This document shows, piece after piece, positions 12,353 to 60,254 of a stretch of DNA of 64,000 nucleotides (positions within the stretch are counted from its first letter, which is position 1; each line of letters opens with the position of its first letter). Source of the DNA: Vicinamibacteria bacterium (lineage in GTDB: Bacteria > Acidobacteriota > Vicinamibacteria > Marinacidobacterales > Marinacidobacteraceae). Below the pieces are notes generated by a model. That model saw nothing but the letters and a program-made list of their open reading frames with translations, did no database searches and was not told the origin of the DNA. A program made the position numbers and the translations under genes. The stretch is taken from NCBI GenBank assembly GCA_963422395.1, contig OY729431.1, forward strand, positions 2,080,001 to 2,144,000. The letters run 5' to 3'.

Positions 12353-12456
12353 GCGTCAGCACCGATCGACTTCGACCCGGTGCGGCACGCTCTTCCGATT
12401 TCTCGCTGCCGGAGGCGTTCGTCCGGGGTTGCCAGGTAGATACGTACCGTCGGAGT

Positions 12457-13506
12457 ATGGGCTCGCACCGCTTCATCCACCGGCTGTTGAGCTTCCACCT
12501 CCATCGCGCCGTCAACCGCTGGTCCCTCAGCGCGGTGTTGATCGGAGGGGCAGCGGTCCTCGGTACCGGAACCCTCGGCTTCATGTGGATCGAATCGTGG
12601 GGAGCGTTCGACTCGTTCTACATGACGGTCATCACCCTTTCCACCGTCGGCTTCGGCGAGGTGCGGCCGCTGTCGGAGGTCGGGCGCCTGTTCGCGGTGT
12701 TCCTGATCCTGGGCGGCGTCGCCACCGTGGGATTCGCGGTCAGCGCTCTCGGAGAGCGGATCGCCGAGGCGCCGAAGCGGCGCCTGGAAGCGAGGATTCG
12801 CCGGATGAAAGACCACACCATCGTGTGCGGATACGGGCGGATCGCCCGCCCGGTAGTCGCCGGTCTGAGCTCCCTCGACCGCCCCCTGTGCGTGATCGAG
12901 CGGTCTCGGGAAAAGGTCGAGGAAGCCACGCGGGCAGGAGCCTTCGTCCTCGAAGGCGACGCCACTGCCGAGGAAGTTCTGGAACGGGCCGGAGTCCGGC
13001 GTGCGGCGGTAGTGGCGGCGCTGCTCCCGAGCGACGGAGACAATCTTTCGATCGCGATGACCGCGACGGGTCTGCAACCCGGAATTCGGGTCATCGCCCG
13101 CTCGGAAGAAGAGCGCTCGCGGGCCAACCTGGAACGCGCCGGCGCCCGAGCCGAGGATGTGGTTTCGCCGTACCGGACGGCCGGAAGGGCAGTGCTGCGA
13201 AACCTGTGCAGTCCGGAGACCGCCCGTCTGTTCCGCAGCCTGGTCGAGACCACTCCCGGAGCCTTCGACACCGGAGAACTTTCGGTGACCGGGGACTCTG
13301 GGCTCGCGGGGCAGTCGCTGGCCGAGACCGCGATCGGCGCCGGGCGGAATGTGCTCGTGCTCGCAGTCCAACGCCGCGGCGGGGCCATGACGGCCGCCCC
13401 CCGCGGCAACTTGACGCTCCGGCCGGGAGATGTGCTGTACCTGTTCGGCCATCCCGACGACCTCCGCGCGGTCGGCGCCCACCGAGACACTTCCCAAACT
13501 GCGTAA
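12457..13506 (+). CDS. Two-TM potassium channel with RCK (TrkA-N/C) domains
   Basis: TLSTVGFG filter, IVCGYGRI Rossmann motif, GDAT motif, RCK-C (LAGQSLAE...LRPGDVLYLFG). Confidence 0.9.
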   Translation: MGSHRFIHRLLSFHLHRAVNRWSLSAVLIGGAAVLGTGTLGFMWIESWGAFDSFYMTVITLSTVGFGEVRPLSEVGRLFAVFLILGGVATVGFAVSALGERIAEAPKRRLEARIRRMKDHTIVCGYGRIARPVVAGLSSLDRPLCVIERSREKVEEATRAGAFVLEGDATAEEVLERAGVRRAAVVAALLPSDGDNLSIAMTATGLQPGIRVIARSEEERSRANLERAGARAEDVVSPYRTAGRAVLRNLCSPETARLFRSLVETTPGAFDTGELSVTGDSGLAGQSLAETAIGAGRNVLVLAVQRRGGAMTAAPRGNLTLRPGDVLYLFGHPDDLRAVGAHRDTSQTA

Positions 13507-16166: not shown

Positions 16167-16237
16167 GAGTCTGCGCCGCAGAAAAAGAACGACCACTATA
16201 TGTAGTAGGTCGATTCGTCGACTTTGCCCACCGGCGG
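16167..16237 (+). mobile_element. MITE family C remnant (IS end plus NrdR-box-like palindrome)
   Basis: GAGTCTGCGCCGCAG is identical to the IS end at 57475. About 50 bp align with 48018-48068. Bounded by CCAG and CTAG. Confidence 0.65.
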
Positions 16238-21997: not shown

Positions 21998-22134
21998 GAA
22001 ACGCTTCGCTCTTCGTTGCGAATCAGTCGGAATACGCCCGGTATGCCTCCCGATTCGCGCCTTGTCCGCCAGGCGCCGCCCCCACCGGGAGAACTGGCCC
22101 GTCTCGGTGCTCGCGCCACTTCATCCACGGACTG
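21998..22134 (-). mobile_element. MITE family A, partial copy
   Basis: Reverse complement matches the left end and hairpin of the 54317 element. Followed by CTAC. Confidence 0.8.
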
Positions 22135-24498: not shown

Positions 24499-24505
24499 GG
24501 GTCGA

Positions 24506-24768
24506 GCGGTTCGGGGGCGGGGCGTCAGGATGGCGTCGGGCGTTCTTGGGGGAGGAGGGAGGATGCCCCGCCCCCGAACCGCCCGGCGCTCCGCGCCGCG
24601 AATCGCACTCCTGCCGCTCAGAACCAGTCCCCCAGACTCGATCCGCGGTCAGACCGGATCAGGCGGCAGCGAGTCCGATTCGAAATCACCATTCTGTGAA
24701 CGGGGGTGAACCCCCTTTCACACTTTCCCCCGCTGCGACGCGCCCGAAGCACCGCTTCGGCCGCAACA
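24506..24768 (-). repeat. Structured repeat family B, single copy
   Basis: Reverse-strand homolog of the 50308-51053 unit and co-oriented homolog of 59171-59457. Contains GTGAACGGGGG/CCCCCTTTCAC and CCGAAGC/GCTTCGG hairpins. Fills the convergent mltG/rnhB gap. Confidence 0.8.
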
Positions 24769-24778
24769 TCCTGCCGTT

Positions 24779-30740: not shown

Positions 30741-32645
30741 ATGCACGAGTGGAACTCGAAGGAGGATGAGATCGCCTGGCGTAGCAGCCTGTGGATAAAG
30801 TGGCGCGAGCCCCAAGATCGGGGAGGCGCCCGGCGGACGAGGCGCGATTCGGGAGGCATACCGGGAGTATTCCGACGGAATCGCAACGCCGAGCCAAGCG
30901 TTCAGGCGGGGCCCCCACCGGGAGGACTGGGCATCGCCGACCTTTGGCCGTGTGACTTCGTCCTCAGGCTGCTAGCCTTTGACCCGCGCACCGGGACGCT
31001 GTTCGCCGGGGCGCTGTTCGCCGGATTCGCCCTCATCGCCGAAGGCGCGGCGGACGGACCGCGGTTCGTGGAGGTGACCGAGGCCGCCGGCATCCGTTTC
31101 CTCCACGAAAACGGCGCTTTCGGCGACAAGTACCTGCCGGAGACGATGGGCAGCGGAGTCGCCTTCTTCGACGCCGACGGCGACGGCGACCAGGATCTCC
31201 TCTTCGTGAACAGCCGCCGCTGGCCGGATCGCCGCGAGGGCCCCGCCCCCACCGCCGCGCTCTACCGGAACCGAGGCGACGGCACCTTCGAGGACGCCAC
31301 CGCAGGCTCCGGGCTCGACCTCCCGCTCTACGGCATCGGAGCGGCCATCGCCGACTACGACGGCGACGGCGACCAGGATGTCTATCTGGCGGTGCTCGGG
31401 CCCAACCGGCTGCTCGAGAACGACGGCGGCGGGGCGTTTCGGGAAGCGCCGGCATCGGCATCGGTGGCTCACCCCGGCTTTTCCAGCGGGGCGACCTGGT
31501 TCGACGCCGACGCCGACGGCGATCTGGACCTGTTCGTCCTGAACTATGTCGAGTGGTCCATCGAGGCGGACATCTTCTGCGCCCTCGACGGCGTGCACAA
31601 GAGTTACTGCACCCCGGAGTCCTACGACGGAGCGAGCGCCGCGCTCTACCGGAACGACGGTGCGAACGGCTTCACCGACATCACCGAAGCCGCCGGGCTC
31701 TTCGAGCCGCGCGGCAAGGGTCTCGGGGTGGCGGCGTTCGACTTCGACGACGACGGGCTCCCCGACCTCGCGGTCGCCAACGACACCCAACCCAACTACC
31801 TCTATCGGAACCTCGGAGGCGGGCGGTTCGAGGATGTCGGGGTGCTCGCCGGAATCGCCTTCGCCGAGAACGGAGCTGCGCGCGGAGCGATGGGAATCGA
31901 TGCCTCGGACTACGACGGGGACGGCTGGCCGGACCTCGTGATCGGCAACTTCTCGAACGAGATGGTGTCGCTCTACCACAACGAGGGCGTCGGTTTCTTC
32001 ATCGACCAGGCGCCGGTGTCCGAGATCGGCCGGAACAGCCTGCTCACCCTGGCCTTCGGCGCGTTCTTCTTCGACTACGACCTCGACGGGCGCCAGGATC
32101 TCTTCCTGGCGAACGGCCATGTCGAGAACGAGATCGCCGGAGTCCAGCAGCGGGTCCGCTACCAGCAGCCCCCGCACCTCTTCCGCAACCGGGGCGGCGG
32201 CCGCTTCGTCGAAGTGACCGCGGACTCCCCCGACCTCGCCCGCCCGATGGTCGGCCGGGGTGCAGCCTTCGCGGACATCGACGGCGACGGCGATCTCGAT
32301 CTCGCGGTGAGCGAAAACGGCGGTGCGGCGCGGCTCTTCCGCAACGAGGGCGGAGAACGGAGCGGGTGGGTTGGTTTCCGGCTGCGCGGGCGGAATTCGA
32401 ACCGCGACGGAATCGGTGCGAAGATCACCATCGCCATCGAGGACCGCGGCATGACCCGTACCGAGACCCGTTTCGTGAAGAGCGCCACTGGATACGCATC
32501 CCAGAACCAGCTCGAAGTGGTGGTCGGCCTCGGCCCTGCCGGCCGAGCCGTCTCCGCCGCCGTGATCTGGCCCTCGGGCGCCCGGAGCGAGATCGAGTCC
32601 CCGGAGCCGCGCCGCATCCTGCTCGTCGAGGAGCCCGGACGATGA
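30741..32645 (+). CDS. CRTAC1/ASPIC-UnbV family protein with FG-GAP (VCBS) repeats
   Basis: Repeated DxDGDGDxDL motifs, LYRN.G.G.F, NRDGIGAKI and GYASQN. The 5' end is interrupted by a family A element. Confidence 0.88.
   Translation: MHEWNSKEDEIAWRSSLWIKWREPQDRGGARRTRRDSGGIPGVFRRNRNAEPSVQAGPPPGGLGIADLWPCDFVLRLLAFDPRTGTLFAGALFAGFALIAEGAADGPRFVEVTEAAGIRFLHENGAFGDKYLPETMGSGVAFFDADGDGDQDLLFVNSRRWPDRREGPAPTAALYRNRGDGTFEDATAGSGLDLPLYGIGAAIADYDGDGDQDVYLAVLGPNRLLENDGGGAFREAPASASVAHPGFSSGATWFDADADGDLDLFVLNYVEWSIEADIFCALDGVHKSYCTPESYDGASAALYRNDGANGFTDITEAAGLFEPRGKGLGVAAFDFDDDGLPDLAVANDTQPNYLYRNLGGGRFEDVGVLAGIAFAENGAARGAMGIDASDYDGDGWPDLVIGNFSNEMVSLYHNEGVGFFIDQAPVSEIGRNSLLTLAFGAFFFDYDLDGRQDLFLANGHVENEIAGVQQRVRYQQPPHLFRNRGGGRFVEVTADSPDLARPMVGRGAAFADIDGDGDLDLAVSENGGAARLFRNEGGERSGWVGFRLRGRNSNRDGIGAKITIAIEDRGMTRTETRFVKSATGYASQNQLEVVVGLGPAGRAVSAAVIWPSGARSEIESPEPRRILLVEEPGR
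30785..30971 (+). mobile_element. MITE family A, full copy (187 bp)
   Basis: TIRs CAGCCTGTGGATAAAGT / ACTTCGTCCTCAGGCTG, flanked by GTAG and CTAG. Confidence 0.85.
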
Positions 32646-44918: not shown

Positions 44919-45013
44919 TCTGCCCTCCGAGCGGCCCCCGCTCCCGAGCAGAAGGTTCCGGGTTGGATTCCGGTCGGGGACCCTCGACCGGGAGCCCCTC
45001 GCTACTCGGCAAT

Positions 45014-45038
45014 GCCGTGTGACTTCGTCCACGGGCTG
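45014..45038 (+). mobile_element. Solo right end of MITE family A
   Basis: GCCGTGTGACTTCGTCCACGGGCTG followed by CTAG; one mismatch to 54807-54831. Confidence 0.75.
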
Positions 45039-48013: not shown

Positions 48014-48122
48014 CAGCCTGCGCCGCAGAAAACGATGACCCCCATACGGAGCAGGTCGATTCGTCGATGACCACTACATATGGTGGTAGATCGTGCTTGG
48101 AATCGTTCGCCGGCACAGGCTG
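48014..48122 (+). mobile_element. MITE family C, full copy (109 bp)
   Basis: TIRs CAGCCTGCGCCG / CGGCACAGGCTG, flanked by CTAA and CCAG. Shares CTGCGCCGCAGAAA and CATATGGTGGTAG with the IS end at 59116-59155 (reverse strand). Confidence 0.75.
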
Positions 48123-50166: not shown

Positions 50167-50274
50167 ACACCTCTCTCGGGAGTCCGTCTCCCCCAAGCCC
50201 AGTATCCAGAATCGGGAGAGAGGGGGTGTCCCCTTTTCTCAGGAAGTGAGAACTCCCATCCGAATCGCTGTCAG

Positions 50275-50302
50275 CAGCCTGTGGAAGTCGCGCGAGCCCC
50301 AA
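50275..50302 (+). mobile_element. Left end of MITE family A abutting the family B array
   Basis: CAGCCTGTGGAAGTCGCGCGAGCCCCAA versus CAGCCTGTGGATGAAGTGGCGCGAGCCCCAA. Confidence 0.65.
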
Positions 50303-50307
50303 CCCCG

Positions 50308-51053
50308 CCCGAGAGAGCCTCGACCCCCAGTCCGTGGCCTAAAAAACACCTGTTGCGACCGAAGCTCCGCTTCGGGCGCGGCACAGCGGGGGTATGTGTG
50401 AAAGGGGGTCCACCCCCTTTCACAGAATTCGTGACTCGGAATCCGAAATCGCTGCCTCCGGCAGCAGTTCGGATTCCCGGCGCAGAGCGCCGAGCGTTCC
50501 GGGAGCGGGGCGTCCCGCTCTTCCCACGAGAGTGCGAGACGACATCACGCCCCGAGAGAGAGCCTCGACCCTCTCCGTGGCCTAAAAAACACCTGTTGCG
50601 ACCGAAGCTTCGCTTCGGCGCGGCGCAGCGGGGGTATGTGTGAAAGGGGGTAGACCCCCTTTCACAGAATTCGTGACGCAGAATCCGAAATCGCTGCCTC
50701 CAGCAGCAATTCGGATTCCCGGCGCGAAGCGCCGGGCGTTCCGGGAGCGGGGCGTCCCGCTCTTCCCACGAGAGTGCGAGACGACATCACCCCCCGAGAG
50801 AGAGCCTCGACCCCCAGTCCGTGGCCTAAAAAACACCTGTTGCGACCGAAGCTCCGCTTCGGGCGCGGCGCAGCGGGGGTATGTGTGAAAGGGGGTCCAC
50901 CCCCTTTCACAGAATTCGTGACTCGGAATCCGAAATCGCTGCCTCCGGCAGCAGTTCGGATTCCCGGCGCGAAGCGCCGGGCGTTCCGGGAGCGGGGCGT
51001 TCCGCTCTTCCCACGAGAGTGCGAGACGAAATCACGCCCCGCTCCCGGAACGC
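50308..51053 (+). repeat. Tandem array of three ~243-bp structured repeats (family B)
   Basis: Units start at about 50308, 50551 and 50793. They are near-identical, and each has several hairpins. Confidence 0.95.
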
Positions 51054-52133
51054 TCAGTGTTCGAGTCGGTTGACGACCCGGAACACTCCGGGAGTGCTCC
51101 GGGCGATGGACTCGAGGATCCGCGATTCGATGGAGCTGCGCACGACTCCGGTCAGCGCCACCACCCCGCGCGAGACCACGATGTGGATCGGTGGATTCAC
51201 GCGGTTCGCGCGGTCCGAGAATCGCGGGTCCCGGTATATCCGGTAGTACAGGGCGCTCCGGAGGTCCTGGTCGTTGGGGGACAGCGGTAGCACCTCAATC
51301 CGGTTGTCCACGCTTTTCACTCCGAAGACCCGGGCGACCCGGCTCTCGATCTCCGTCTTCTTGAAAGGCTCGGTGACGGCGCCGATGAGCACGATCTCGT
51401 ACGGTTCCTCCATCCCGAAGTTGATGTCGTCGAACACCGTGTAGTACGAGTAGCGCAGGACCGCACGGCGGACACCCTCGACGAGATCCTCCATGCTCTC
51501 CGGCTCGGCGATTTCGAGGTCGGGATCCACTGCAACCACTCCGGCCACCGACTCGGCTCGTTCCACCACCTCGCGCCATTCCCAGGCGTTCGCGACCTGG
51601 CCGGTCAGTCGGACCACGCCTTCGTTCACACTCACGCGGGGATCCTCGGCCTCGAGGTCCGCCGCGGCAATTCCGGCGGCCACCTCAGCGCTCACCGCGG
51701 CATCGGCGCGGGACGCAGTCCCGGGTTCGGCCGCGGGGGGCGGCGAAGCTTCGGCCGCTTCCAACCCCTCTGCCTCCCGGTTCCGAACCGCCGCTTCGCC
51801 CACCTCCGTCTTCCGGTCGCTCGCAGACTCCGACTCCGGATCCGCGGGACCTAGGGGATCGAGCACGACGATTTCGGTTTCGACCGCAGTGACACCCTCC
51901 ACGAAGAGCGCGATCTCGACGACCCGCAAGCGGGTCGCCTCGTCCAGCACTTCGCCGGACAGAATCGCCACGCCGTCGCTCACCTCCACTTCGAAGAGGC
52001 CGACGGCCAGATCGGCCGCTTCGATAGCTTCGGCGATCTCCTCGGTGAGCCGGGTGTCGGACCGGGGCTGCTCCGCAGCGGAAAGGGGAAGCGCCGACAC
52101 GGCGAACAGCAGTAATGGGAACAGGTTGCGCAT
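51054..52133 (-). CDS. Multi-BON-domain protein (about 4 BON domains)
   Basis: Signal peptide and repeated V..GVV.L.G.V ... GV..V.N.L motifs. Confidence 0.85.
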   Translation of the reverse strand: MRNLFPLLLFAVSALPLSAAEQPRSDTRLTEEIAEAIEAADLAVGLFEVEVSDGVAILSGEVLDEATRLRVVEIALFVEGVTAVETEIVVLDPLGPADPESESASDRKTEVGEAAVRNREAEGLEAAEASPPPAAEPGTASRADAAVSAEVAAGIAAADLEAEDPRVSVNEGVVRLTGQVANAWEWREVVERAESVAGVVAVDPDLEIAEPESMEDLVEGVRRAVLRYSYYTVFDDINFGMEEPYEIVLIGAVTEPFKKTEIESRVARVFGVKSVDNRIEVLPLSPNDQDLRSALYYRIYRDPRFSDRANRVNPPIHIVVSRGVVALTGVVRSSIESRILESIARSTPGVFRVVNRLEH

Positions 52134-52260
52134 GATTCTCGACCTCATCGTTTTCGGACTTCTCGAGAAACGCAACTGTCATGCCGCAGCACGACTGCGG
52201 GCAGTCCGTTCCCGGAGCGGCGCGAGCTTCCGGACCGGGGTTCTCCCGGTGGGGCCCCGG

Positions 52261-52382
52261 CTGAACCGCTTCGCTCTTCATTGCAAATCCGTCGGAATAC
52301 GCCCGGTATGCCTCCCGATTCGCGCCTTGTCCGCCGGGGGCCTCCCCGATCTCGGGGCTCGCGCCACTTTATCCACAGGCTG
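52261..52382 (-). mobile_element. MITE family A, partial copy
   Basis: Reverse complement of the left about 120 bp of family A. Ends ATCCACAGGCTG followed by CTAG. Confidence 0.82.
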
Positions 52383-52396
52383 CTAGTCTCGTCCCC

Positions 52397-52885
52397 ATGG
52401 GCGAACGACCCCGCCGCTACTGGCTGATGAAGAGCGAACCCGAGGCCTACAGCCTCGACGACCTCGAGCGGGACAAGACGACTCACTGGGACGGCGTCCG
52501 GAACTTCAAGGCACGCAATCTGATGAAGGACATGGAGATCGGCGACGGAGTGCTCTTCTACCACTCGAACGCCAAACCTCCCGGCATCGCCGGGGTCGCG
52601 CGAGTCTCCCGGAAAGCGTATCCGGACTTCACCCAGTTCGATCCGGACTCGAAGTACCACGACCCGCGCGCCACTCGAAAGAAGCCGTGGTGGTACATGG
52701 TGGACATCGAGTTCGTCTCGCGCTTTCCCGAAGAGATCGCACTGCCGGTGCTCCGCCAGCTGCCCGAGCTCGAAGGCATGGCTCTCCTGAAACGGGGTCA
52801 ACGGCTTTCCGTGCAGCCGGTGACCCCCCAGGAGTGGGCGTTCCTCCTCGATTTCGGCAGGCGCGGCCGAAGCCGCGGCGGCTGA
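52397..52885 (+). CDS. EVE domain protein
   Basis: YWLMKSEP, WDGVRN..ARN, FYHS, AYPD.TQFD and RLSVQPV motifs. Confidence 0.93.
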   Translation: MGERPRRYWLMKSEPEAYSLDDLERDKTTHWDGVRNFKARNLMKDMEIGDGVLFYHSNAKPPGIAGVARVSRKAYPDFTQFDPDSKYHDPRATRKKPWWYMVDIEFVSRFPEEIALPVLRQLPELEGMALLKRGQRLSVQPVTPQEWAFLLDFGRRGRSRGG

Positions 52886-52992
52886 ATTCGGTAGCCCCGC
52901 GGAAACTCTCCGGGCGGCAGGCGGGTCGCCGCGGCGCGTTCACGAGGCCCCTGCCCCGGTACACTTTCCGCTGTTTTCTCTTGGAGGCCTTC

Positions 52993-54297
52993 ATGTTCCC
53001 ACGCGCCGCGCTCACCGCACCGCTCCTCGCCCTCACCGCCGCCTCCGCCGCTGCCCAGGAAGTCGGCGCCTGGGACGACCGCATCCAGGATGCCGTCTCG
53101 CACCATGAGGAACAGTCGGTCGCCTTTCGCCACCAGGTCCACCAGTTCCCCGAACTCGGAAACCGCGAATTCGAGACCGCGCGTCTCGTTGCGGAGCATC
53201 TCCGCGAGCTCGGTTTCGATGAGGTCCGCGAGGGAGTCGCCCACACCGGCGTCGTCGGTGTGTTGCGGGGCGGCAAACCGGGCGCAGTCGTCGCGGTCCG
53301 CGCCGACATGGACGCTCTGCCCGTCACCGAGGACACCGATTTCGAATTCGCTTCCACCGTCAGAACGACATACAACGGTCAGGAAGTCGGGGTCATGCAC
53401 GCCTGCGGGCACGATGTCCACACCGCGGTGCAATACGGAGTCGCCTCGGTGCTCGCCGGAATCCGGGAGGACATTCCCGGAACGATTCTCTTCATCTTCC
53501 AACCCGCCGAAGAAGGCCCCCCGCCGGGCGAAGAGGGAGGCGCCGAGCTCATGGTCCACGAGGGCGTCTTCGACGATCCCCGGCCGCAGGCGATTTTCGG
53601 ACTCCACACCCTGTCCGGACTACCGCTCGGAGTGATCGGGTTCACTCCGGGGCCAGCGCTCGCTGCGGTGGATCACTTCCAGGCGACGATCACCGGCGTG
53701 CAGACCCACGGCGCGCAGCCGCAGGCGGGAGTGGACCCGGTCGTGATGGCGGCGCAGACGATCCTCTCGCTGCAGACCATCGCCTCCCGGAATGTCCACC
53801 CGCTCCAGCCGGTCGTGGTGACCGTAGGCATGGTGAACGGAGGCCAGCGCTTCAACATCATCCCGGAATCCGTTGCGATCGAGGGGACCGTTCGGACCTA
53901 CGACCCCGAAGTGCGTGATCTCGTGGAAAGGCGAATGCACGAGGTGCTCGGCGGAATCACCGCTTCCGGCGGCGGCTCCTACTCCCTGACCTACGACCGC
54001 GGCTCCCCCGCAACGATCAACGATCGGGAGCTCACCGCCGAGAGCATTCTCACGGTCCGGCAGATCGTGGGCGCCGACAACACCCAGGAGCTCGATCCGA
54101 CGATGGGCGGTGAGGACTTCTCCTACTTCGCGAACGAGGTCCCGGGGTTCTTCTACCGGCTCGGGATCCATCGCGAAGGGACCCGGACCGGTCCGCACCA
54201 CTCCCCGTTCTTCCGTGCTGACGACGATTCGGTGGCGATCGGGATGCGGGTGATGTCCAACCTCCTGGTGGATTACCTGCTTCGGAACGCCTCCTGA
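52993..54297 (+). CDS. M20 family amidohydrolase, secreted
   Basis: GGAGG RBS, signal peptide, RADMDALP, MHACGHD, FQPAEE and EDFS motifs. Confidence 0.92.
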   Translation: MFPRAALTAPLLALTAASAAAQEVGAWDDRIQDAVSHHEEQSVAFRHQVHQFPELGNREFETARLVAEHLRELGFDEVREGVAHTGVVGVLRGGKPGAVVAVRADMDALPVTEDTDFEFASTVRTTYNGQEVGVMHACGHDVHTAVQYGVASVLAGIREDIPGTILFIFQPAEEGPPPGEEGGAELMVHEGVFDDPRPQAIFGLHTLSGLPLGVIGFTPGPALAAVDHFQATITGVQTHGAQPQAGVDPVVMAAQTILSLQTIASRNVHPLQPVVVTVGMVNGGQRFNIIPESVAIEGTVRTYDPEVRDLVERRMHEVLGGITASGGGSYSLTYDRGSPATINDRELTAESILTVRQIVGADNTQELDPTMGGEDFSYFANEVPGFFYRLGIHREGTRTGPHHSPFFRADDDSVAIGMRVMSNLLVDYLLRNAS

Positions 54298-54312
54298 CTA
54301 CGGACCGCCGTC

Positions 54313-54835
54313 CTAGCAGCCTGTGGATGAAGTGGCGCGAGCCCCAAGATCGGGGAGGCGCCCGGCTGACAAGGCGCGATTCGGGAGGCATACCGGGTGT
54401 ATTCCGACCGAATCGCAACGCCGAGCCAAGCGTTCAGCCGGGATGCATCGCCGGTCGACGGCCGTGTGACTTCGTCCACAGGCTGCTAACAGCCTGTGGA
54501 TGAAGTGGCGCGAGCCCCAAGATCGGGGAGGCGCCCGGCTGACAAGGCGCGATTCGGGAGGCATACCGGGTGTATTCCGACCGAATCGCAACGCCGAGCC
54601 AAGCGTTCAGCCGGGATGCATCGCCGGTCGACGGCCGTGTGACTTCGTCCACAGGCTGCTAACAGCCTGTGGATGAAGTGGCGCGAGCCCCAAGATCGGG
54701 GAGGCGCCCGGCTGACAAGGCGCGATTCGGGAGGCATACCGGGTGTATTCCGACCGAATCGCAACGCCGAGCGAAGCGTTCAGCCGGGATGCATCGCCGG
54801 TCGACGGCCGTGTGACTTCGTCCACAGGCTGCTAA
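54313..54835 (+). mobile_element. Head-to-tail triple array of MITE family A (3 x 169 bp, 173-bp period)
   Basis: Copies at 54317-54485, 54490-54658 and 54663-54831. 17-bp TIRs CAGCCTGTGGAYGAAGT. Junctions CTAG, CTAA, CTAA, CTAA. Confidence 0.92.
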
Positions 54836-56376
54836 CCCACCACCCGAACCCGCACCCGTCGAGCTCCGCCGGGCAGGTAGGCGAGCGGAAGGTCCTCGCG
54901 CTCGACGGTCTCGAGACTCGACGGATCGGCCCCGGCGGCGACCGCCCGAGACTTCGCTTCACGGGTCGCCGTTTCGAACGCCTCCTGGCGGCTGACTCCG
55001 TGGAACACCCGGTCCACTTCGCCTCCGATTCGGGCGATCGCGGCACCGACGGCATTGGCGACGCCGGCGTGCGGGACCGTGACCGTTTCCGAAATCCCGT
55101 CGAGCTCTGGCGGAACCAGAAACGCGGCTCCTCCAACGGCCACCAGAGGACGCTCGCGGGCGTCGGGTTTCATCCGATCCACCGCCTCGGCGATCCGCCC
55201 TCGAACCGCAGCGGCGAAGCGCCGGACGCTCTCCGCGGGCAACCGGGAGACGCGGCGGGGATCCCCGACCTCGGTCCAACCGGCAGCGACTCCGAAGTCG
55301 GTAGCAGTGGGCGTCTTCCCGCCGAAGACGAGCCCCTGCTCCATCAACCGGAACCCCACACTCTCCGGTCCGATCCGAATTCCGTCCGCTGAAACCAGGC
55401 TCCCGCCGCCGAGTGCGAGCGAGATCAGATCGGGCATCCGGAACAGGGTCCGCACCCCGCCCACTTCCACTTCCCGCGGTGCCTCCCGCGGGAAGCCGCC
55501 GCGCAGGTAGCCCACATCGGTGGTGGTCCCGCCCGCATCCACGACCACCGCATCCGCGGCGCCGGAGAGGAAAGCCGCGCCGGTCATGCTGTTCGTGGGG
55601 CCCGAGGAGAGACTCAGCACCGGGAACTCGCGAGCCGCCGAAGCGCCGGCGATCGTGCCGTCGTTCCTGGAGAGGAACAGCGGTGCGCCCGTGCCCGCCT
55701 TCTCCATCGCTTCGGTGAATCCGGCCGCCGCCCGGCCCGCGAGCGGCCGGAGCGCGGCGTTCAGGAGGCCGGCGTTTTCACGGCCGAGCAGTCCGATTCG
55801 GGAAAGCCGGCGAGACTCGGTGATGGACACCTCCGGGTACTCCTCCCGGAGGATCTCGGCGGCCCGGGCTTCGTGGCTCCCGTCGAGCGGAGAGAACACC
55901 GCGCAAAGCGCGATCTCCCGGATGCCGGCCTTTCGGGTTTCGCGCGCCGCTGCGCGAACCGCAGCCTCGTCGAGCGGGACGATGGGCCTTCCGTCACATT
56001 CATGGCCTCCCTCGACCAGGAAGACCGGCCCGCGGACGCGGCGAGCGAGTCCCGGGGGCCAGTCACAGAACGGAGGGAGGGAGGCGCTCGCCGGAAGCCC
56101 GATCCGAACCGCCGCCACCCGCTCGAGACCCGAACCGGTCAGTACCGCGTTCGTGAAGTGGGTGGTTCCGATCACCACCCGGGCGGCATCGGGTGCCCGG
56201 TCCGCATCTCGGAGAACCCCGCGAAGAGCGGCGGCGATCCCCGCGGTGACATCCTCGGTCGTCCGGGTCTTGACCGCAGCGAGCACTTCGGCTCCGCTCA
56301 TCAGCACGGCATCGGTGTGGGTGCCCCCGACATCCACTCCGACCCGCGGGCGGGGCGGCGGCGAAGCGGTGCTCAC
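54832..56376 (-). CDS. Hydantoinase/oxoprolinase family protein
   Basis: GVDVGGTHTDAV, IGTTHFTNA, SSGPTNSM.GA, DAGGTTTD and ANAVGAA motifs. Confidence 0.9.
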   Translation of the reverse strand: MSTASPPPRPRVGVDVGGTHTDAVLMSGAEVLAAVKTRTTEDVTAGIAAALRGVLRDADRAPDAARVVIGTTHFTNAVLTGSGLERVAAVRIGLPASASLPPFCDWPPGLARRVRGPVFLVEGGHECDGRPIVPLDEAAVRAAARETRKAGIREIALCAVFSPLDGSHEARAAEILREEYPEVSITESRRLSRIGLLGRENAGLLNAALRPLAGRAAAGFTEAMEKAGTGAPLFLSRNDGTIAGASAAREFPVLSLSSGPTNSMTGAAFLSGAADAVVVDAGGTTTDVGYLRGGFPREAPREVEVGGVRTLFRMPDLISLALGGGSLVSADGIRIGPESVGFRLMEQGLVFGGKTPTATDFGVAAGWTEVGDPRRVSRLPAESVRRFAAAVRGRIAEAVDRMKPDARERPLVAVGGAAFLVPPELDGISETVTVPHAGVANAVGAAIARIGGEVDRVFHGVSRQEAFETATREAKSRAVAAGADPSSLETVEREDLPLAYLPGGARRVRVRVVG

Positions 56377-57458
56377 CGGAACAGCGGCTGAAAATCGAAG
56401 TCGAAGCCGAAGGCCCTCGGCCCGACGAGATCGAGCGCTGCCGGGGTCTTGAGCGCTGCCGGAACGTCGAGAGCGATCACCCGCACCCGCTGGCCGTACG
56501 CGATCACTTCGGTCCCGAGCGCCTCTCCGGTCCCGGAGTCCAGAACGCAAAGAATCTCCGGGGTCGTCCCGACGGGCTCGCCGTCACGGAGAGCGACCGC
56601 GAACTCGTTCTGGAAATGGAGATCCATGGTGGCGCCGCGGTCCTCACCGAGCCCCGCGATCCGCGCGGTTCCGCGCAGGAATCCCCGGGTCGTGAGACGC
56701 TCGATATCGGACACTTTCCCGGCGAAGAGCGAAAGTCCGCCCTCCCCGGCGAGCACCGCTTCCACCGGATCCTCGTGCCGCTCACGCGCTCGGCGCAGGG
56801 CCGCGCCGATCCGGAGCGCCCGGGTCACGGACCCCTGGACCGCGAAGTCCTTGACTTCGCGACCAGTCCGCGGAGCCTTCGCGGTGGCGGCGATGGATCC
56901 CACCTCGGTCACCGCAACTCGGCCGAGCCGCTCCTGCCATTTCCAGCTCGCTGCTCGGTCCACGATCACGATGTTGTCCCGGATATCGGCGAGACAGAAC
57001 GGGTAGTTCCTGAGCCCCGCTACTGCGAAGGTGGTCATCTGCGCCTCGGGGAACGCCCGCCCCATGGAGTCGGCATCCACCACGGGAAGCGCGGTCCGCG
57101 CCGCCACCAGGAAACTCTGGAGTGCGTTGGAACCGCCGATCTCGAGCGACATCACCGCCGCGAAGGGCCGACCGAGCCGTTCCGCGAGCACTCGCACCGG
57201 GCGGGCCGCGATCTCGGGATCCGGCAACCGTTCCTCGCCGACGAGTGGAGCCCCCATGGTCGAAACCACCGCCACCAGATGATCGTCGTCGAGTGCCTCC
57301 GACGGGATCAACCGAGGGCGAAATCCACGCTTCGCCTCCTGACGCAGGTTCAGCAGCGAGTGGTATGGATCGCCGCCGCCCCCGGCGCCGAGAATCCAGG
57401 CTCCGGCCGCGAGATCCTCGATCTCGAAGGCATGAAGCTCCCGTTCGCCCGCAAACAC
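56373..57458 (-). CDS. DUF917 family protein
   Basis: LGAGGGGDP, MGAP, EIGG.N, D.MGRAFPE.QM, FQNE and PE.LC.LD motifs. Coupled to the hydantoinase gene. Confidence 0.85.
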   Translation of the reverse strand: MFAGERELHAFEIEDLAAGAWILGAGGGGDPYHSLLNLRQEAKRGFRPRLIPSEALDDDHLVAVVSTMGAPLVGEERLPDPEIAARPVRVLAERLGRPFAAVMSLEIGGSNALQSFLVAARTALPVVDADSMGRAFPEAQMTTFAVAGLRNYPFCLADIRDNIVIVDRAASWKWQERLGRVAVTEVGSIAATAKAPRTGREVKDFAVQGSVTRALRIGAALRRARERHEDPVEAVLAGEGGLSLFAGKVSDIERLTTRGFLRGTARIAGLGEDRGATMDLHFQNEFAVALRDGEPVGTTPEILCVLDSGTGEALGTEVIAYGQRVRVIALDVPAALKTPAALDLVGPRAFGFDFDFQPLFR

Positions 57459-57654
57459 CGGCGAGCGATGCTAGGAGTCTGCGCCGCAGGAAGGTTGGGG
57501 CGGATCGGGGGTTCGGGAGCGCGTGGGAGATTCGGGGGTTCGGGAGCGCGTGATCGGAGTCATGGGGCGGGATCGCGCAGTTTTCGGGCGGGAGGGGAGT
57601 TCGGGAAGGCGCTCCGGAGGGCCATTGGGCGCCAGGGCGGGGCGGGGCAGGCGT

Positions 57655-58980
57655 TTACGCTGCCAGCAACCCCGGGAGCCGTCGCAGGTTCAACGCCAGG
57701 CAGACCAGGTCCCACTCTCCTTGCGCCTTGCGCAGCCCCCGGAAGCTGAACCGCCGGAACCCCATCACCTCCTTGATCCACCCGTGGGGCGCCTCGGACA
57801 GCCACTTCCGCGCCGCGTAGATCTTTCGCCCGGCGTGAGCCGCCAGTTTTTCTCTCATCCGGCGGGTCGCCGGGTGATGCTTCGCGGGAGTGCCCGCCGC
57901 CCGCTTCCGCCCTTCCCGTCCGACGGCGACATACCCGTCTATCCCGCGGGTTTCCAGCAGTGCCAGGTCCCGCTCGTTGCAGTATCCGGCATCAGCCAAC
58001 ACCACCGCCGGCACCGCGCCCAACTCTTCTCGCACCCGGTCCAGCAGCGCCGGCAGCTGCCCCTGGTCGCCCGCATTCGCCGTCAGCTGGTTCGACACCA
58101 CCAGCTGGTTCTCTCCGTCCACCGCCATCTGCGCGTTGTAGCACTGCTGGAACCCCTCGGCGCTCGTCTTCATGATCCGGCTCTCGGGGTCGGTGAAGTT
58201 CCCCTGCGCTTCCGCCTTCGGCTCCCCATGCGCGCGCTGGTAGCGCCGACCGTTCCCCGGACTGTGGGTCTGTCCGGGGACCCGCCCCCGCGCCTCGTCC
58301 CGCGCCCGCTGCTCCGCTTCCAGCTGCACCTTCGCCGCCCGGATCGCCGCCAACCGATCCTCCCGGCGCCGCAGCTCAGCCGGCAACTCGTCGCCGCGCC
58401 GCTCCGCCCCGTGGGCTGCGTCCTCCCGCTCGTCGGTCTCTCCCGCCTGCTCCAAATATCCCGCGATCTCCGCCGCAAGCCGCCGCTCCTCGGCCAGCAT
58501 CCGCCCATAACTCATCGCCTTGCGCTTGCTCGCGTTCGCCCGAACCTTCACCCCGTCCAGCGATAGCCTGCCGAAACGCACCAGCCCGCACTGCCGCGCC
58601 ACCCGCACCACCTCGACGAACAACTCCCGGAAATCCCCCAGATGCCGACGACGAAACTCGCAGATCGTCCGGTGCCTCGGGAAGTTCCTCGCCGCCAGCA
58701 TCCGAAACGCCACGTCCTCTTCCAGCTTCCGCGCAATCCCACGCGACGAAAACACCCCCGTCGCATAAGCGTAGATCAGCACCTTCACCATCATCCGCGG
58801 GTCATACGGCGCGTTCCGCCGCCCGTCCCCCGCATACGGCGCGTAGAACGCAGACAAGTCCAGCTCGTCCACCACATCGCTGATGTGATGCGCCAAATGC
58901 CCCTCCGGAACCCACTGCCGCAGATCCGGCGGCAACAAGAGCAGCTGCCCCGGCTGATACTGACGAAAACGCGTGCCCAT
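57655..58980 (-). CDS. IS1182-family DDE transposase
   Basis: PYDPRMMVKVLIYAY..GVFSSR.I, LDGVKVRANAS, TDPESRIM, YNAQ, LADAGY and E..HG.IK..MGFRRF..RG motifs. ORF intact. Confidence 0.92.
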   Translation of the reverse strand: MGTRFRQYQPGQLLLLPPDLRQWVPEGHLAHHISDVVDELDLSAFYAPYAGDGRRNAPYDPRMMVKVLIYAYATGVFSSRGIARKLEEDVAFRMLAARNFPRHRTICEFRRRHLGDFRELFVEVVRVARQCGLVRFGRLSLDGVKVRANASKRKAMSYGRMLAEERRLAAEIAGYLEQAGETDEREDAAHGAERRGDELPAELRRREDRLAAIRAAKVQLEAEQRARDEARGRVPGQTHSPGNGRRYQRAHGEPKAEAQGNFTDPESRIMKTSAEGFQQCYNAQMAVDGENQLVVSNQLTANAGDQGQLPALLDRVREELGAVPAVVLADAGYCNERDLALLETRGIDGYVAVGREGRKRAAGTPAKHHPATRRMREKLAAHAGRKIYAARKWLSEAPHGWIKEVMGFRRFSFRGLRKAQGEWDLVCLALNLRRLPGLLAA

Positions 58981-59026
58981 CGGAACCATCCCTCCCCGGA
59001 TCCGAGACGCCCTCGCCCCTTTTCCG

Positions 59027-59050
59027 TAAGTGTATGATATAAATGAGTTA
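59027..59050. promoter_or_regulatory. AT-rich imperfect palindrome, overlapping IHF-like sites upstream of transposase
   Basis: TAAGTGTATGATATAAATGAGTTA; each strand matches WATCAANNNNTTR with one mismatch. Confidence 0.4.
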
Positions 59051-59159
59051 TATGCCACGCAACCGTGTCGCCCCCCGGTCCCAACTCCCGAGCAGCCCGA
59101 CCGTCCGCTCGTCGCTACCACCATATGGCCCGCCCCGTTTCTGCGGCGCAGACTGCTAG

Positions 59160-59457
59160 CAGCCAGCTGTGCGATTCGGGGGCGGGGCGTAAAGATCGTG
59201 TTGCGTTTCGAACCCTCTATGGGAAGAGCGGGACGCCCCGCCCCCGAATCGCCCGGCGCTCCGCGCCGCGAATCCGAACTGCTGCCGCTCACGCCCCATC
59301 CCCAGATTCAGTGCGCAACCAAGCTGGATCGGGCGGCAGCGAGTCCGATTCGGTGTCACCAATTCGTGAACGGGGGTGAACCCCCTTTCACACTTTCCCA
59401 CGCTGCGACGCTCCCGAAGCTCCGCTTCGGGCGCAACATGTGTTTTTCCGGCCACGG
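59160..59457 (-). repeat. Structured repeat family B, single copy abutting the IS target site
   Basis: Homologous to 24506-24768 and to the reverse complement of the 50308 unit. Begins CAGCC directly after CTAG. Confidence 0.8.
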
Positions 59458-59588
59458 GCGAAACTCGCAGCTCTCAGGCAGGGCCTGAGGTGGTGCCGCG
59501 AATCCGCCGTGCGGGGTCCCGACCCCCTCCTGGAAGCGAATCCGCTTCTTCCCCCCCTTCGGATAGCCTCCCGACCGGGGTCCGTTTC

Positions 59589-60254
59589 GTGCTCGCCGTT
59601 CACTTCCTCACCATCGGACAGTCGCCGCGCCCGGATTCGGTGCCGGAGATCCTGAGTTTCCTGGGGGTTCACGCGGCCCGTATCCGGGTGATCGAGGCCG
59701 GAGCACTCGACGGACTCTCGCGGGATGAAGTGCGGGTTGGCACTCCCCGCCCCGGGGAGATGCCGCTCGTCTCGCGGCTTCGCGACGGCGAGGAAGTGAT
59801 CCTCGGGGAGCGGTTCGTGGAACAGCGGATCGCAGCTCTGGTGGACCGAGTTCCTGAGGGCGACTTCGCCGCCATCCTCTGCACCGGACCGTTCTCCGGG
59901 ATTCGCGAGCGGCCCGGGCTCTTGAAGGCCGGACCGATCTTCGACGAAGCCCTCCGGGCCGCCTGCCCTCAGGGGGGCACCGTGGGAATGCTCCTTCCAG
60001 AACCGCGGCAGGAGGAGGACGCGCGGCGACGGGTTCCGGCAGACAGCCGTTCGGTGATCGCCGTGGCCTCGCCCTACTCGGATCCGGAAGGAGTGGAGCG
60101 GCTCTCCGAAGAGTTCCGCGAGGCCGACCTCATCGGGCTGAACTGCCTCGGATACTCCGGAGCCCTCGCCCGCCTTCTGGAACGGAAGACCGGGAAACCC
60201 GTCGTTCTGGCGCGGCGGGCGCTGGCCGAAGCCCTGCGGGTCCGCATGGACTGA
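59589..60254 (+). CDS. AroM family protein
   Basis: LTIGQSPRPD, GALDG, LVSRLRDG, ILCTG.F, ASPY and LNCLGY motifs. Start inferred. Confidence 0.82.
   Translation: MLAVHFLTIGQSPRPDSVPEILSFLGVHAARIRVIEAGALDGLSRDEVRVGTPRPGEMPLVSRLRDGEEVILGERFVEQRIAALVDRVPEGDFAAILCTGPFSGIRERPGLLKAGPIFDEALRAACPQGGTVGMLLPEPRQEEDARRRVPADSRSVIAVASPYSDPEGVERLSEEFREADLIGLNCLGYSGALARLLERKTGKPVVLARRALAEALRVRMD

Follow-up and report, generated by a model that had tools for sequence, protein, structure and literature searches.

MITEs linked to IS1182-family insertion sequences are already described as a kind. ISPse1 of Paracoccus seriniphilus, a member of this family, is 1,653 bp in length and carries one transposase gene; its inverted repeats measure 16 nt and its direct repeat 4 bp (PMC3281130). 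MITEPye1 of Paracoccus yeei is a small non-coding miniature inverted-repeat transposable element (MITE) whose 18-bp terminal repeats resemble those of IS1182-family insertion sequences, with 4-bp direct repeats; it is intergenic, has a predicted stem-loop and is present in 1-3 chromosomal copies (PMC11578231). For the window (the whole stretch of 64,000 nucleotides analyzed here), a sequence-only reading had proposed that one intact IS1182-like element drives three families of repeats (A, B and C) as an undescribed system. We found an IS1182-family element in the window, designated IS-W, and a second, IS1182-like lineage elsewhere in the genome, designated IS-X. Like ISPse1, IS-W has a single transposase gene, a length in the ~1.65-kb class, short inverted repeats and a 4-bp duplication; of its near-exclusive CTAG target (68 of 76 homologous loci) there is no mention in the part of PMC3281130 that deals with ISPse1. 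The relations of family C to IS-W and of family A to IS-X appear to be the same as that of MITEPye1 to IS1182-family elements, as far as the account of MITEPye1 in PMC11578231 goes, whereas family A, with 40 full copies and 213 ends and a spread over a whole bacterial family, contrasts with the few copies given there for MITEPye1. What had been put forward as an undescribed system is thus an ordinary case of a described kind, and in the literature on IS1182 elements and MITEs, searched without the host taxon, no description of families A, B and C was found.

The element IS-W and family C

The features of the IS-W locus and of family C are as follows (window positions).
57475-59155, minus strand: IS-W, IS1182-family insertion sequence (1,681 bp; three full genome copies)
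57471-57474: CTAG target duplication, left copy (flank sequence and empty-site joint in other strains)
59156-59159: CTAG target duplication, right copy (flank sequence and empty-site joint in other strains)
57475-57491, plus strand: IS-W left terminal inverted repeat GAGTCTGCGCCGCAGGA (same repeat type in 76/80 homologous loci of other genomes)
59139-59155, minus strand: IS-W right terminal inverted repeat, CAGTCTGCGCCGCAGAA read inward (comparison of ends)
58989 to 57658 (stop 57655-57657), minus strand: IS-W transposase gene, 444 aa, uninterrupted (Pfam and NCBIfam)
48014-48122, plus strand: family C, full copy of a putative MITE, 109 bp (14-17 nt of agreement with the IS-W ends)
16167-16221, plus strand: family C, solo left end (17/17 match to IS-W end)

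As had been claimed from the letters, the transposase of IS-W is intact and a CTAG stands on both sides of the element. The 444-aa frame is open and scored 371.1 bits with the NCBIfam IS1182 model NF033551 (cut-off 270), and Pfam matched PF05598 (DUF772, N-terminal), PF01609 (DDE_Tnp_1) and PF13751 (DDE_Tnp_1_6), all above their cut-offs. The inverted repeats, described beforehand as perfect, are so over a 14-nt core, while the whole ends are identical at 15 of 17 bases and differ at the outermost base. With its short terminal repeats and 4-bp target duplication, as in ISPse1, IS-W is a genuine intact member of the IS1182 family. Three full copies, whose 444-aa frames are identical, and three partial ones are present in the genome, and identity among the copies is 96.8-99.1%. 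The empty-site comparison that had been proposed as a check gave an exact result: contigs from three of the four public runs compared (X3, X5 and X7, from two studies) join position 57468 to 59154, skipping 1685 bases (1681 + 4). Since this exact empty site is present in contigs of three other runs, IS-W moved recently, and it is an active or recently mobile element. Among 80 homologous loci in metagenome-assembled genomes (MAGs) of several phyla, 76 keep ends of the type GAG(T/C)(C/G)TGCGCCG(C/T)AG; the flanks of these 76 are CTAG/CTAG in 68 and CTAT/CTAT in 2, and the latter indicate that the 4-bp duplication is truly direct. The nearest homologues of the transposase, also in MAGs, have 67-73% protein identity.

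Family C was present in the window in the two pieces previously counted, one full copy and one solo end, and in the whole genome as four full copies of 108-115 bp plus solo ends, with no coding capacity. Its ends match those of IS-W at up to 17/17 nt, and it is the only one of the three families that carries them. The four full copies are flanked by CTAG/CTAG, CCAG/CTAG, CTAA/CCAG and CCAG/CTAA, i.e., by identical 4-mers in one case of four. Family C is small, non-coding, present in several copies and bounded by terminal repeats that match IS-W, and this end matching supports its assignment as the probable cognate non-autonomous derivative (MITE) of IS-W. IS-W would thus insert at CTAG with a 4-bp duplication, and family C would be its own non-autonomous derivative. 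For annotation, an active CTAG-specific IS1182-family element plus a small MITE have been defined.

Family A and the IS-X lineage

Family A is represented in the window by nine pieces, in line with the earlier count of about nine.
30785-30971, plus strand: full 187-bp copy, putative MITE of the IS-X lineage and not of IS-W (sequence and end comparison)
54317-54831, plus strand: three tandem copies, 169 bp each, with a single CTAA between (mutual identity 99.4-100%)
21998-22134, minus strand: truncated copy (repeat comparison)
52240-52382, minus strand: truncated copy (repeat comparison)
44970-45038, plus strand: right-end fragment (repeat comparison)
50275-50303, plus strand: solo tip adjoining a family B array (repeat comparison)
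12454-12489: weak piece (repeat comparison)

The pieces of all three families in the window are repeated through the genome far above chance, with up to 78-119 overlapping BLAST matches per piece. Genome-wide, family A comprises 213 recognisable ends and 40 full-length, non-coding copies of 155-215 bp. The flanks are YTAR at most ends (most left flanks read YTAG and most right ones CTAR), and identical 4-mers stand on both sides in 14 of the 40 oriented full-length copies, unlike in the autonomous relatives.

The full-length copy of IS-X lies at 1.31 Mb of the genome (1313397-1314803), is 1,407 bp long, has CTAA on both sides and encodes a DUF772 domain. The best NCBIfam match of IS-X is IS1182, where the copy of this genome scores 116.9 bits and an intact homologue 162.8 bits, both below the cut-off of 270; IS-X is IS1182-like and is not counted as a member of the IS1182 family. 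Its ends are CAGCCTGTGGA(A/C)AAAGT, and it duplicates 4 bp at sites centred on TA; this duplication was clean in 9 of the 11 homologous elements inspected. Pfam found both DUF772 and DDE domains in the intact homologue, whereas the copy of this genome is defective, with an N-terminal frameshift and 27 aa missing between the first two catalytic aspartates; five further derivatives here are internally deleted or truncated. In all five related genomes examined, homologues of IS-X have open frames of 473-492 aa, in up to 17 copies, and in four of the five the elements are intact, multi-copy and bounded by the same ends. The transposases of IS-W and IS-X are only distantly alike, with 33% identity across a stretch of 98 aa and 23% across one of 172 aa.

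When the ends were compared, those of family A matched IS-X of this genome at 14-17 of 20 positions and its homologues in the five related genomes at 13-18 of 20. Against IS-W the agreement was 8-9 of 20, and beyond the shared CAGYCTG tip it fell to 2-4 of 13, which is chance level. Family A is small, non-coding, present in many copies and bounded by terminal repeats that match IS-X, and terminal repeats matching those of IS-W are what it lacks. An insertion sequence with better-matching ends does exist, and this is the finding that had been named beforehand as speaking against IS-W as the driver of family A. Family A would be a MITE of IS-X, a second, distantly related IS1182-like lineage; because the only full-length IS-X copy here is defective, family A would now be immobile or reliant on some further transposase. 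In this genome no functional cognate transposase for family A was found, the sole full-length IS-X being defective, nor was any other DUF772/DDE_Tnp_1 gene with ends matching family A. For annotation, this adds a high-copy MITE family with a probable IS1182-like parent, across a little-studied bacterial family.

Family B and the shared target site

Family B was found in the window in five units, the number previously claimed.
24499-24769, plus strand: hairpin-mosaic repeat, starting directly after a stop codon, apparently outside the insertion sequence system (repeat comparison)
50302-51058, minus strand: three tandem units of ~245 bp (repeat comparison)
59166-59500, plus strand: unit adjoining IS-W, with fuzzy boundaries (match boundaries)

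In the genome, family B has 53 loci with graded boundaries, and its units are modular and partial (~245-300 bp). Across these 53 loci we found neither the fixed termini with inverted repeats nor the target duplications that would be expected of a MITE, and no common flank. One unit had been said to start with CAGCC exactly at the IS-W target; CTAG followed by CAGCC does stand at the right IS-W junction, but it is not the terminus of family B, since positions 59160-59165 are covered by 3-5 of ~70 family B matches and the match boundaries of this unit are spread over 59166-59221 and 59457-59500. REP and BIME sequences are extragenic palindromic arrays of enterobacteria, and REP units are much shorter than those of family B. 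Family B is like them in that hairpin modules are combined in arrays at gene 3' ends (in family B directly after stop codons or the 3' ends of tRNAs), and unlike REP/REPIN in the much greater length of its units and in the missing RAYT gene: no match to the Y1 transposase domain PF01797 was obtained in this genome (93.8% complete, one contig), while the controls matched. Full units were found only in this genome; among 13 genomes of a single related genus, 10 have sub-modules and nothing more. Family B would be a hairpin-rich mosaic repeat tied to neither transposase. With Rfam, no family was above threshold for A, B or C in the window; for family B the output consisted only of sub-threshold microRNA- and Y-RNA-like noise.

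CTAG stands at 663 places in the genome (G+C 68%), where base composition predicts 8,376, a depletion of about twelve-fold. The IS481 family includes elements that prefer CTAG as target. An IS481-like element of 1,045 bp, with an integrase-like transposase, TGTG...CACA ends and CTAG flanks, abuts family A copies and one IS-W copy; its transposase is of an unrelated type, and it is relevant to IS-W only as a third user of CTAG. At 18 places, two elements meet back to back across a single shared 4-mer, where less than one such junction is expected from the tip counts. IS-W, IS-X with family A, and the IS481-like element would land repeatedly side by side and next to gene ends because CTAG/YTAR is depleted, contains TAG/TAA and is duplicated at each insertion. 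The same regenerating target would thus gather elements of three transposase types at common sites.

Placement at gene boundaries, which had been noted for nearly all pieces, did not exceed what the target sites allow. The flanking TAR was the stop codon of a gene at 27 of the 213 family A ends (13%) and at 12-16% of other YTAR sites, on a gene map made by a crude codon-usage ORF caller (2,147 calls, 87% coverage); gene calling based on GC3 was dropped in favor of this caller, as sense and antisense frames were inseparable. The depletion of CTAG, the stop codons within YTAR and the regeneration of the site at each insertion account for the clustering at gene boundaries. The view of the elements as promoter-bearing cassettes gained no support either: in 50200-59600, a scan for sigma-70-type promoters gave no site against 0.5 expected, with a consensus that may not be that of the host. 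Terminator-like sites in the same interval numbered 5 (5.6 expected). Where CTAG is depleted about twelve-fold, caution is needed, as unrelated elements that target CTAG gather at the same sites and stop codons, so that shared flanks and adjacency can mimic a network run by a single enzyme. What is needed to assign a MITE to its transposase is the sub-terminal repeat sequence rather than tip and target.

Transposase assignments and other repeats

Overall, we consider it probable that several independent repeat systems (IS-W with family C; IS-X with family A; family B) are co-located through a shared rare, self-regenerating target. The anatomy, end matching, copy census, empty site, target statistics and pile-ups were observed here, and the pairing of transposase with element is our inference. 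IS-W as the single driver is supported for family C (ends up to 17/17), but not for family A (8-9/20, against 13-18/20 for IS-X) nor for family B, which has no termini, duplication or link to an insertion sequence. The CAGYCTG-like termini and CTAR-like flanks that had been claimed for A and C were indeed seen: the tip (C/G)AG(C/T)CTG and the CTAG target are common to A, C, IS-W and IS-X, so some cross-recognition at the cleavage step is conceivable. It is nevertheless improbable that the IS-W transposase, as the sole intact IS1182-type enzyme here, cross-mobilises family A (and perhaps B) besides C through this tip and target. IS-W is intact and recently active, IS-X is defective here and yet the youngest family A copies are 97-98% identical, and at three sites an IS-W end meets a family A end over a single CTAG. 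However, the ends of A agree with IS-W beyond the 7-nt tip only at chance level, the IS-W end sequence is kept by 76 of 80 homologues from several phyla, which points to specific recognition, family B is without any termini, and one related genome (G007) has family A and IS-X with no IS-W match, while another (G015) has IS-W with no family A match. Moreover, the unrelated IS481-like element also abuts family A ends, which indicates that adjacency is a sign of the shared target, not of the enzyme. No claim here depends on a further genome in the comparison, G033, which is flagged as unpublished. The three genomes with the most family A candidates (G014, G021 and G024) carry both insertion sequence types, so co-occurrence there cannot separate the two drivers, and age does not discriminate between them either, since the youngest A copies and the IS-W copies are similar in identity. 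If IS-W did move family A, one enzyme would act on the MITEs of two IS1182-like lineages with transposases <35% identical.

Unlikely, too, is a family A that is mainly a host-maintained structured element (a regulatory RNA or DNA hairpin), under selection and no longer meaningfully mobile. Family A matches are present in 21 of 24 genomes of the same family, with an interior 73-87% identical in other genera, and 15 of these 21 have neither transposase at E <= 1e-30; in addition, the 187-nt copy folds better than 200 of 200 shuffled sequences (z = -3.0). Its terminal inverted repeats are nevertheless of the IS-X type and most ends have YTAR flanks, truncated copies and solo ends are numerous, tandem and nested insertions occur, and median pairwise identity is only 88%, all of which speak against this reading. 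Very improbable is a composite element in which arrays of family B are cargo bounded by tips of the A/IS-X type. Such tips adjoin family B arrays at 50275 and four further loci, and CAGCC follows CTAG at 59160, but a tip lies within 60 nt at only 5 of the 53 family B loci and on both sides at none; family B usually starts at a stop codon or where a tRNA ends, with the motif TGAGCGGTYCGGG, and its distribution across genomes differs from that of family A. Independent systems meeting at a shared target thus remain the preferred reading.

Three other candidates for an autonomous parent were rejected. The 1,045-bp repeat, considered for family A, is IS481-like with its own TGTG...CACA ends. A 1,215-bp IS5-like element (four copies) has ends of the GGAAGGTCTGAT type, which match none of A, B and C. 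An autonomous element formed by two family A tips around a gene was also considered; paired tips stand 855-2,717 bp apart, and the three pairs inspected enclose housekeeping-like genes and no transposases. One of the genes between paired tips is a 16S rRNA dimethyltransferase-like frame.

IS-W, its empty site and family C

As the sequence-only reading had claimed, the window contains an intact IS1182-family insertion sequence, IS-W, with CTAG at both junctions. The transposase frame is uninterrupted, carries the DUF772, DDE_Tnp_1 and DDE_Tnp_1_6 domains, and scored 371.1 bits against the NCBIfam IS1182 equivalog (cut-off 270). The inverted repeats, described as perfect, are so over a 14-nt core, but across the terminal sequences (GAGTCTGCGCCGCAGGA and CAGTCTGCGCCGCAGAA) 15 of 17 positions are identical and the outermost base is mismatched.

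Elements and repeats in the window
57475-59155: IS-W, 1,681 bp
57471-57474 and 59156-59159: CTAG immediately outside the IS-W ends
58989 to 57658, minus strand: IS-W transposase frame, 444 aa
57499-57555: direct repeat of about 20 nt (GGGGGTTCGGGAGCGCGTG) in the left sub-terminal part of IS-W
48014-48122: full family C copy
16167: solo family C end
30785-30971 and 54317-54831: family A copies, among those considered for flanks
24499-24769, 50302-51058 and 59166-59500: family B units
31151-32315: seven copies of a 61-nt coding repeat

The genome carries three full copies of IS-W, whose 444-aa frames are identical, and three partial copies, with 96.8-99.1% identity among them. The three full copies are unequal in length (1,681, 1,694 and 1,716 bp), and contigs of other strains have an 11-12-nt insertion near window 57625-57630, inside IS-W. 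An empty-site search was conducted by comparing Logan contigs of four public sequencing runs with window 56700-59900. In three of the four runs (X3, X5 and X7, from two studies), contigs joined 57468 to 59154, skipping 1,685 bases, with a positional ambiguity of 6 bases; since the skipped bases correspond exactly to IS-W plus one CTAG, this joint is the empty site. The joining contig of X5 had a depth of 107.3, equal to that of the flank, and because the evidence consists of contigs rather than reads it speaks to presence only.

The comparison was extended to 80 loci encoding transposases 67-73% identical to that of IS-W, from metagenome-assembled genomes labelled Longimicrobiales, Vicinamibacterales, Alphaproteobacteria, Latescibacterota and others. 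An IS-W-type end pair, 1,578-1,887 bp apart, was present in 76 of these loci, flanked by CTAG/CTAG in 68/76 and by CTAT/CTAT in 2/76, indicating from sequence comparison that this transposase clade has stably retained both its end sequence and its CTAG target. Family C has four full copies (108-115 bp) and several solo ends. Its termini, (C/G)AG(C/T)CTGCGCCGCAGAA, match the IS-W ends at up to 17 of 17 bases, and the same 4-mer occurs on both flanks at only one of the four full copies. Judged by its ends, family C appears to belong to IS-W, as had been proposed.

An IS1182-type element with dependent miniature inverted-repeat transposable elements (MITEs) is already an established kind of system: two publications describe ISPse1 as a 1,653-bp IS1182-family element whose inverted repeats match at 16/16 and whose direct repeat is 4 bp long (PMC3281130), and MITEPye1 as an intergenic MITE with 18-bp terminal repeats like IS1182-family ends and 4-bp direct repeats (PMC11578231). 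The novelty lies in the individual elements, in how many copies family A has and how widely it is spread through the bacterial family, and in the accumulation at a depleted target. The observation behind the sequence-only reading was confirmed, while its interpretation by a single driver was borne out only in part.

Family A and the IS-X lineage

The window (G000:C1:2080001-2144000) lies within a single contig of 2.908 Mb (68.4% G+C), the first ~36 kb of which (1-35903) recur at its end (2872301-2908270) with 98.5-99.4% identity, probably an unclosed circular assembly overlap; because this doubles repeat counts, positions beyond 2,872,300 were left out of all censuses. A BLAST search with a 169-bp family A reference copy returned 130 segments, 41 of them full-length, and a 17-nt A end pattern with up to three mismatches occurred 213 times in the de-duplicated genome, against about 7 expected by chance (our own arithmetic, uniform composition). 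The median pairwise identity of 40 oriented full-length copies was 88%, with one subgroup at 97-98%, comparable to the IS-W copies. Of 24 same-family genomes, 21 contain A-like DNA. In 20 inspected copies, read in element orientation, the left flank was CTAG in 17 and the right flank CTAA (9) or CTAG (7); identical flanking 4-mers occurred at only 14/40 copies, whereas the autonomous relatives have clean 4-bp duplications.

IS-W had been credited as the probable driver of family A as well. The consensus A ends (CAGCCTGTGGATGAAGTGGC and CAGCCTGTGGACAAAGTCAC) agree with the IS-W ends at 8-9 of 20 positions, and past the common 7-nt tip at 2-4 of 13, where about 3 are expected by chance. A search for further DUF772 genes led to IS-X, an IS1182-like element of 1,407 bp at genome positions 1313397-1314803 with CTAA at either side, whose ends (CAGCCCGTGGACAAA and CAGCCTGTGGAAAAAGT) are like those of A at 14-17 of 20 positions. 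Its frame carries a DUF772 domain, with IS1182 as the top NCBIfam match (116.9 bits, under the cut-off), and the genome contains five internally deleted or truncated copies. Homologues in five relatives (G004, G007, G014, G021 and G024) have open frames of 473-492 aa in up to 17 copies, the single G021 copy having one internal TAG. Their ends (CAGCCTGTGGAAAAAGT or CAGCCTGTGGTGAAA) are like those of A at 13-18 of 20 positions, and nine of 11 homologues inspected showed clean 4-bp duplications (TTAA, TTAG, CTAA, ATAG, TTAC, AATT). An intact homologue reached 162.8 bits against the IS1182 model, with all three Pfam domains present; the IS-W and IS-X transposases are 33% identical across 98 aa and 23% identical across 172 aa.

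IS-X ends therefore fit family A better than IS-W ends do, the finding that the sequence-only reading had itself named as speaking against IS-W, and the end comparison suggests that family A belongs to a lineage other than that of IS-W. The two genomes with discordant content speak for IS-X: A and IS-X occur in G007, with no IS-W match, and IS-W occurs in G015, with no A match. The assignment is weakened by the IS-X copy of this genome, which looks dead: its N-terminal 50 residues lie in a different frame, and the interval from its first to its second catalytic aspartate is 27 residues shorter than in intact homologues, which fits the 81-bp shorter length of the copy. Searches with PF01609 and PF05598 found no further candidate transposase for A. 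Among the 24 same-family genomes the IS-X type was present in six and the IS-W type in five, and 15 of the 21 A-bearing genomes had neither; many of these 15 assemblies are fragmented, but G005, G012, G018 and G022 are in one or two contigs. The three genomes richest in A candidates (G014, G021 and G024) have both types. As relatives' genomes are not independent samples, these presence counts are descriptive only.

Depleted targets, gene ends and pile-ups

CTAG occurs 663 times in the genome where base composition predicts 8,376 (about twelve-fold depleted), and CTAA 233 times where it predicts 3,866; for CTAA and TTAG alike the depletion is about sixteen-fold. Ends of the A or C/IS-W pattern lie immediately next to 86 of the 663 CTAG sites. 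Read toward the element, the flanks of the 213 A ends were CTAG in 70, TTAG in 46 and CTAA in 11. Gene positions were taken from a crude caller based on codon usage (2,147 genes called, 87% coverage). The reported placement at gene boundaries held in that all 13 window loci lie between called genes, several in contact with a stop codon, but it does not exceed what the targets offer: 27/213 A ends (13%) have a flanking TAG/TAA that terminates a gene running into the element, compared with 12% (70/593) at other CTAG sites and 16% at other CTAA and TTAG sites.

Since each insertion duplicates its target, new targets arise at element ends. Eighteen junctions had two element tips facing across a single 4-mer, where fewer than one was expected (our own arithmetic from tip counts): nine joined A/X to A/X tips, five A/X to IS481-like, three W/C to A/X and one W/C to IS481-like. 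The IS481-like element (about 1,045 bp; L002:3195-4243, that is G000:C1:1970860-1971908, and G000:C1:2568683-2569723) is flanked by CTAG and encodes an integrase-type transposase whose coding sequence is divided between two frames; it is present in four full and two partial copies, and adjoins one IS-W copy as well as A copies, with a shared CTAG or CTAA in between. The junction of CTAG with CAGCC beside IS-W fits a pile-up at a regenerated target, although its five bases are assignable to no family.

Family B and other repeats

The same CAGCC had been read as the start of a family B unit exactly at the IS target. For the unit at 59166-59500, match starts range from 59166 to 59221 and match ends from 59457 to 59500, and only 3-5 of about 70 matches include 59160-59164, so this start is not that of the family. 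Some of the 53 B loci are whole units, others sub-modules or tandem arrays with as many as five units. As a rule B opens with the motif TGAGCGGTYCGGG, directly at a stop codon or the 3' end of a tRNA. An A-type tip lies within 60 nt at only 5/53 loci and on both sides at none. Full units were found in this genome only and sub-modules in 10/13 genomes from a single related genus, a distribution unlike that of A. No Rfam family matched B, and no RAYT (Y1 transposase) gene was found in the genome. Family B is a hairpin-rich mosaic repeat separate from the IS system, and it may be a 3'-end or terminator-like element.

The repeats are structured, as had been stated: the B unit folds far better than its shuffled versions (z = -5.6), and family A gave z = -3.0 against shuffles. 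The description of promoter-bearing cassettes found no support in a sigma-70-like promoter scan of 50200-59600, which returned none with 0.5 expected, although the host's consensus may differ. Contigs of X1 and X3 go back 282 bases, from 59500 to 59219, and in contigs of three or four runs 59286-59347/59355 is replaced by other letters, which hints that B copy number and modules vary between strains; these contigs may stem from other B loci.

An IS5-like element (1,215 bp, four copies, one at G000:C1:1960764-1961978) encodes a 329-aa frame with DUF772 and DDE_Tnp_1; its ends, of the GGAAGGTCTGAT type, are unrelated to A, B or C. A 7-kb tandem-repeat tract (L004, G000:C1:516138-523307; self-match offset steps of about 102 bp, units 80-91% identical) has a truncated copy of IS-W and a copy of A next to its start, and is probably a very repetitive large gene. 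The 61-nt repeat at window 31151-32315 is GAC/GGC-rich, spaced at 150-237 nt and lies in an open frame, which we presume from its looks to encode a calcium-binding FG-GAP/VCBS-type repeat protein.
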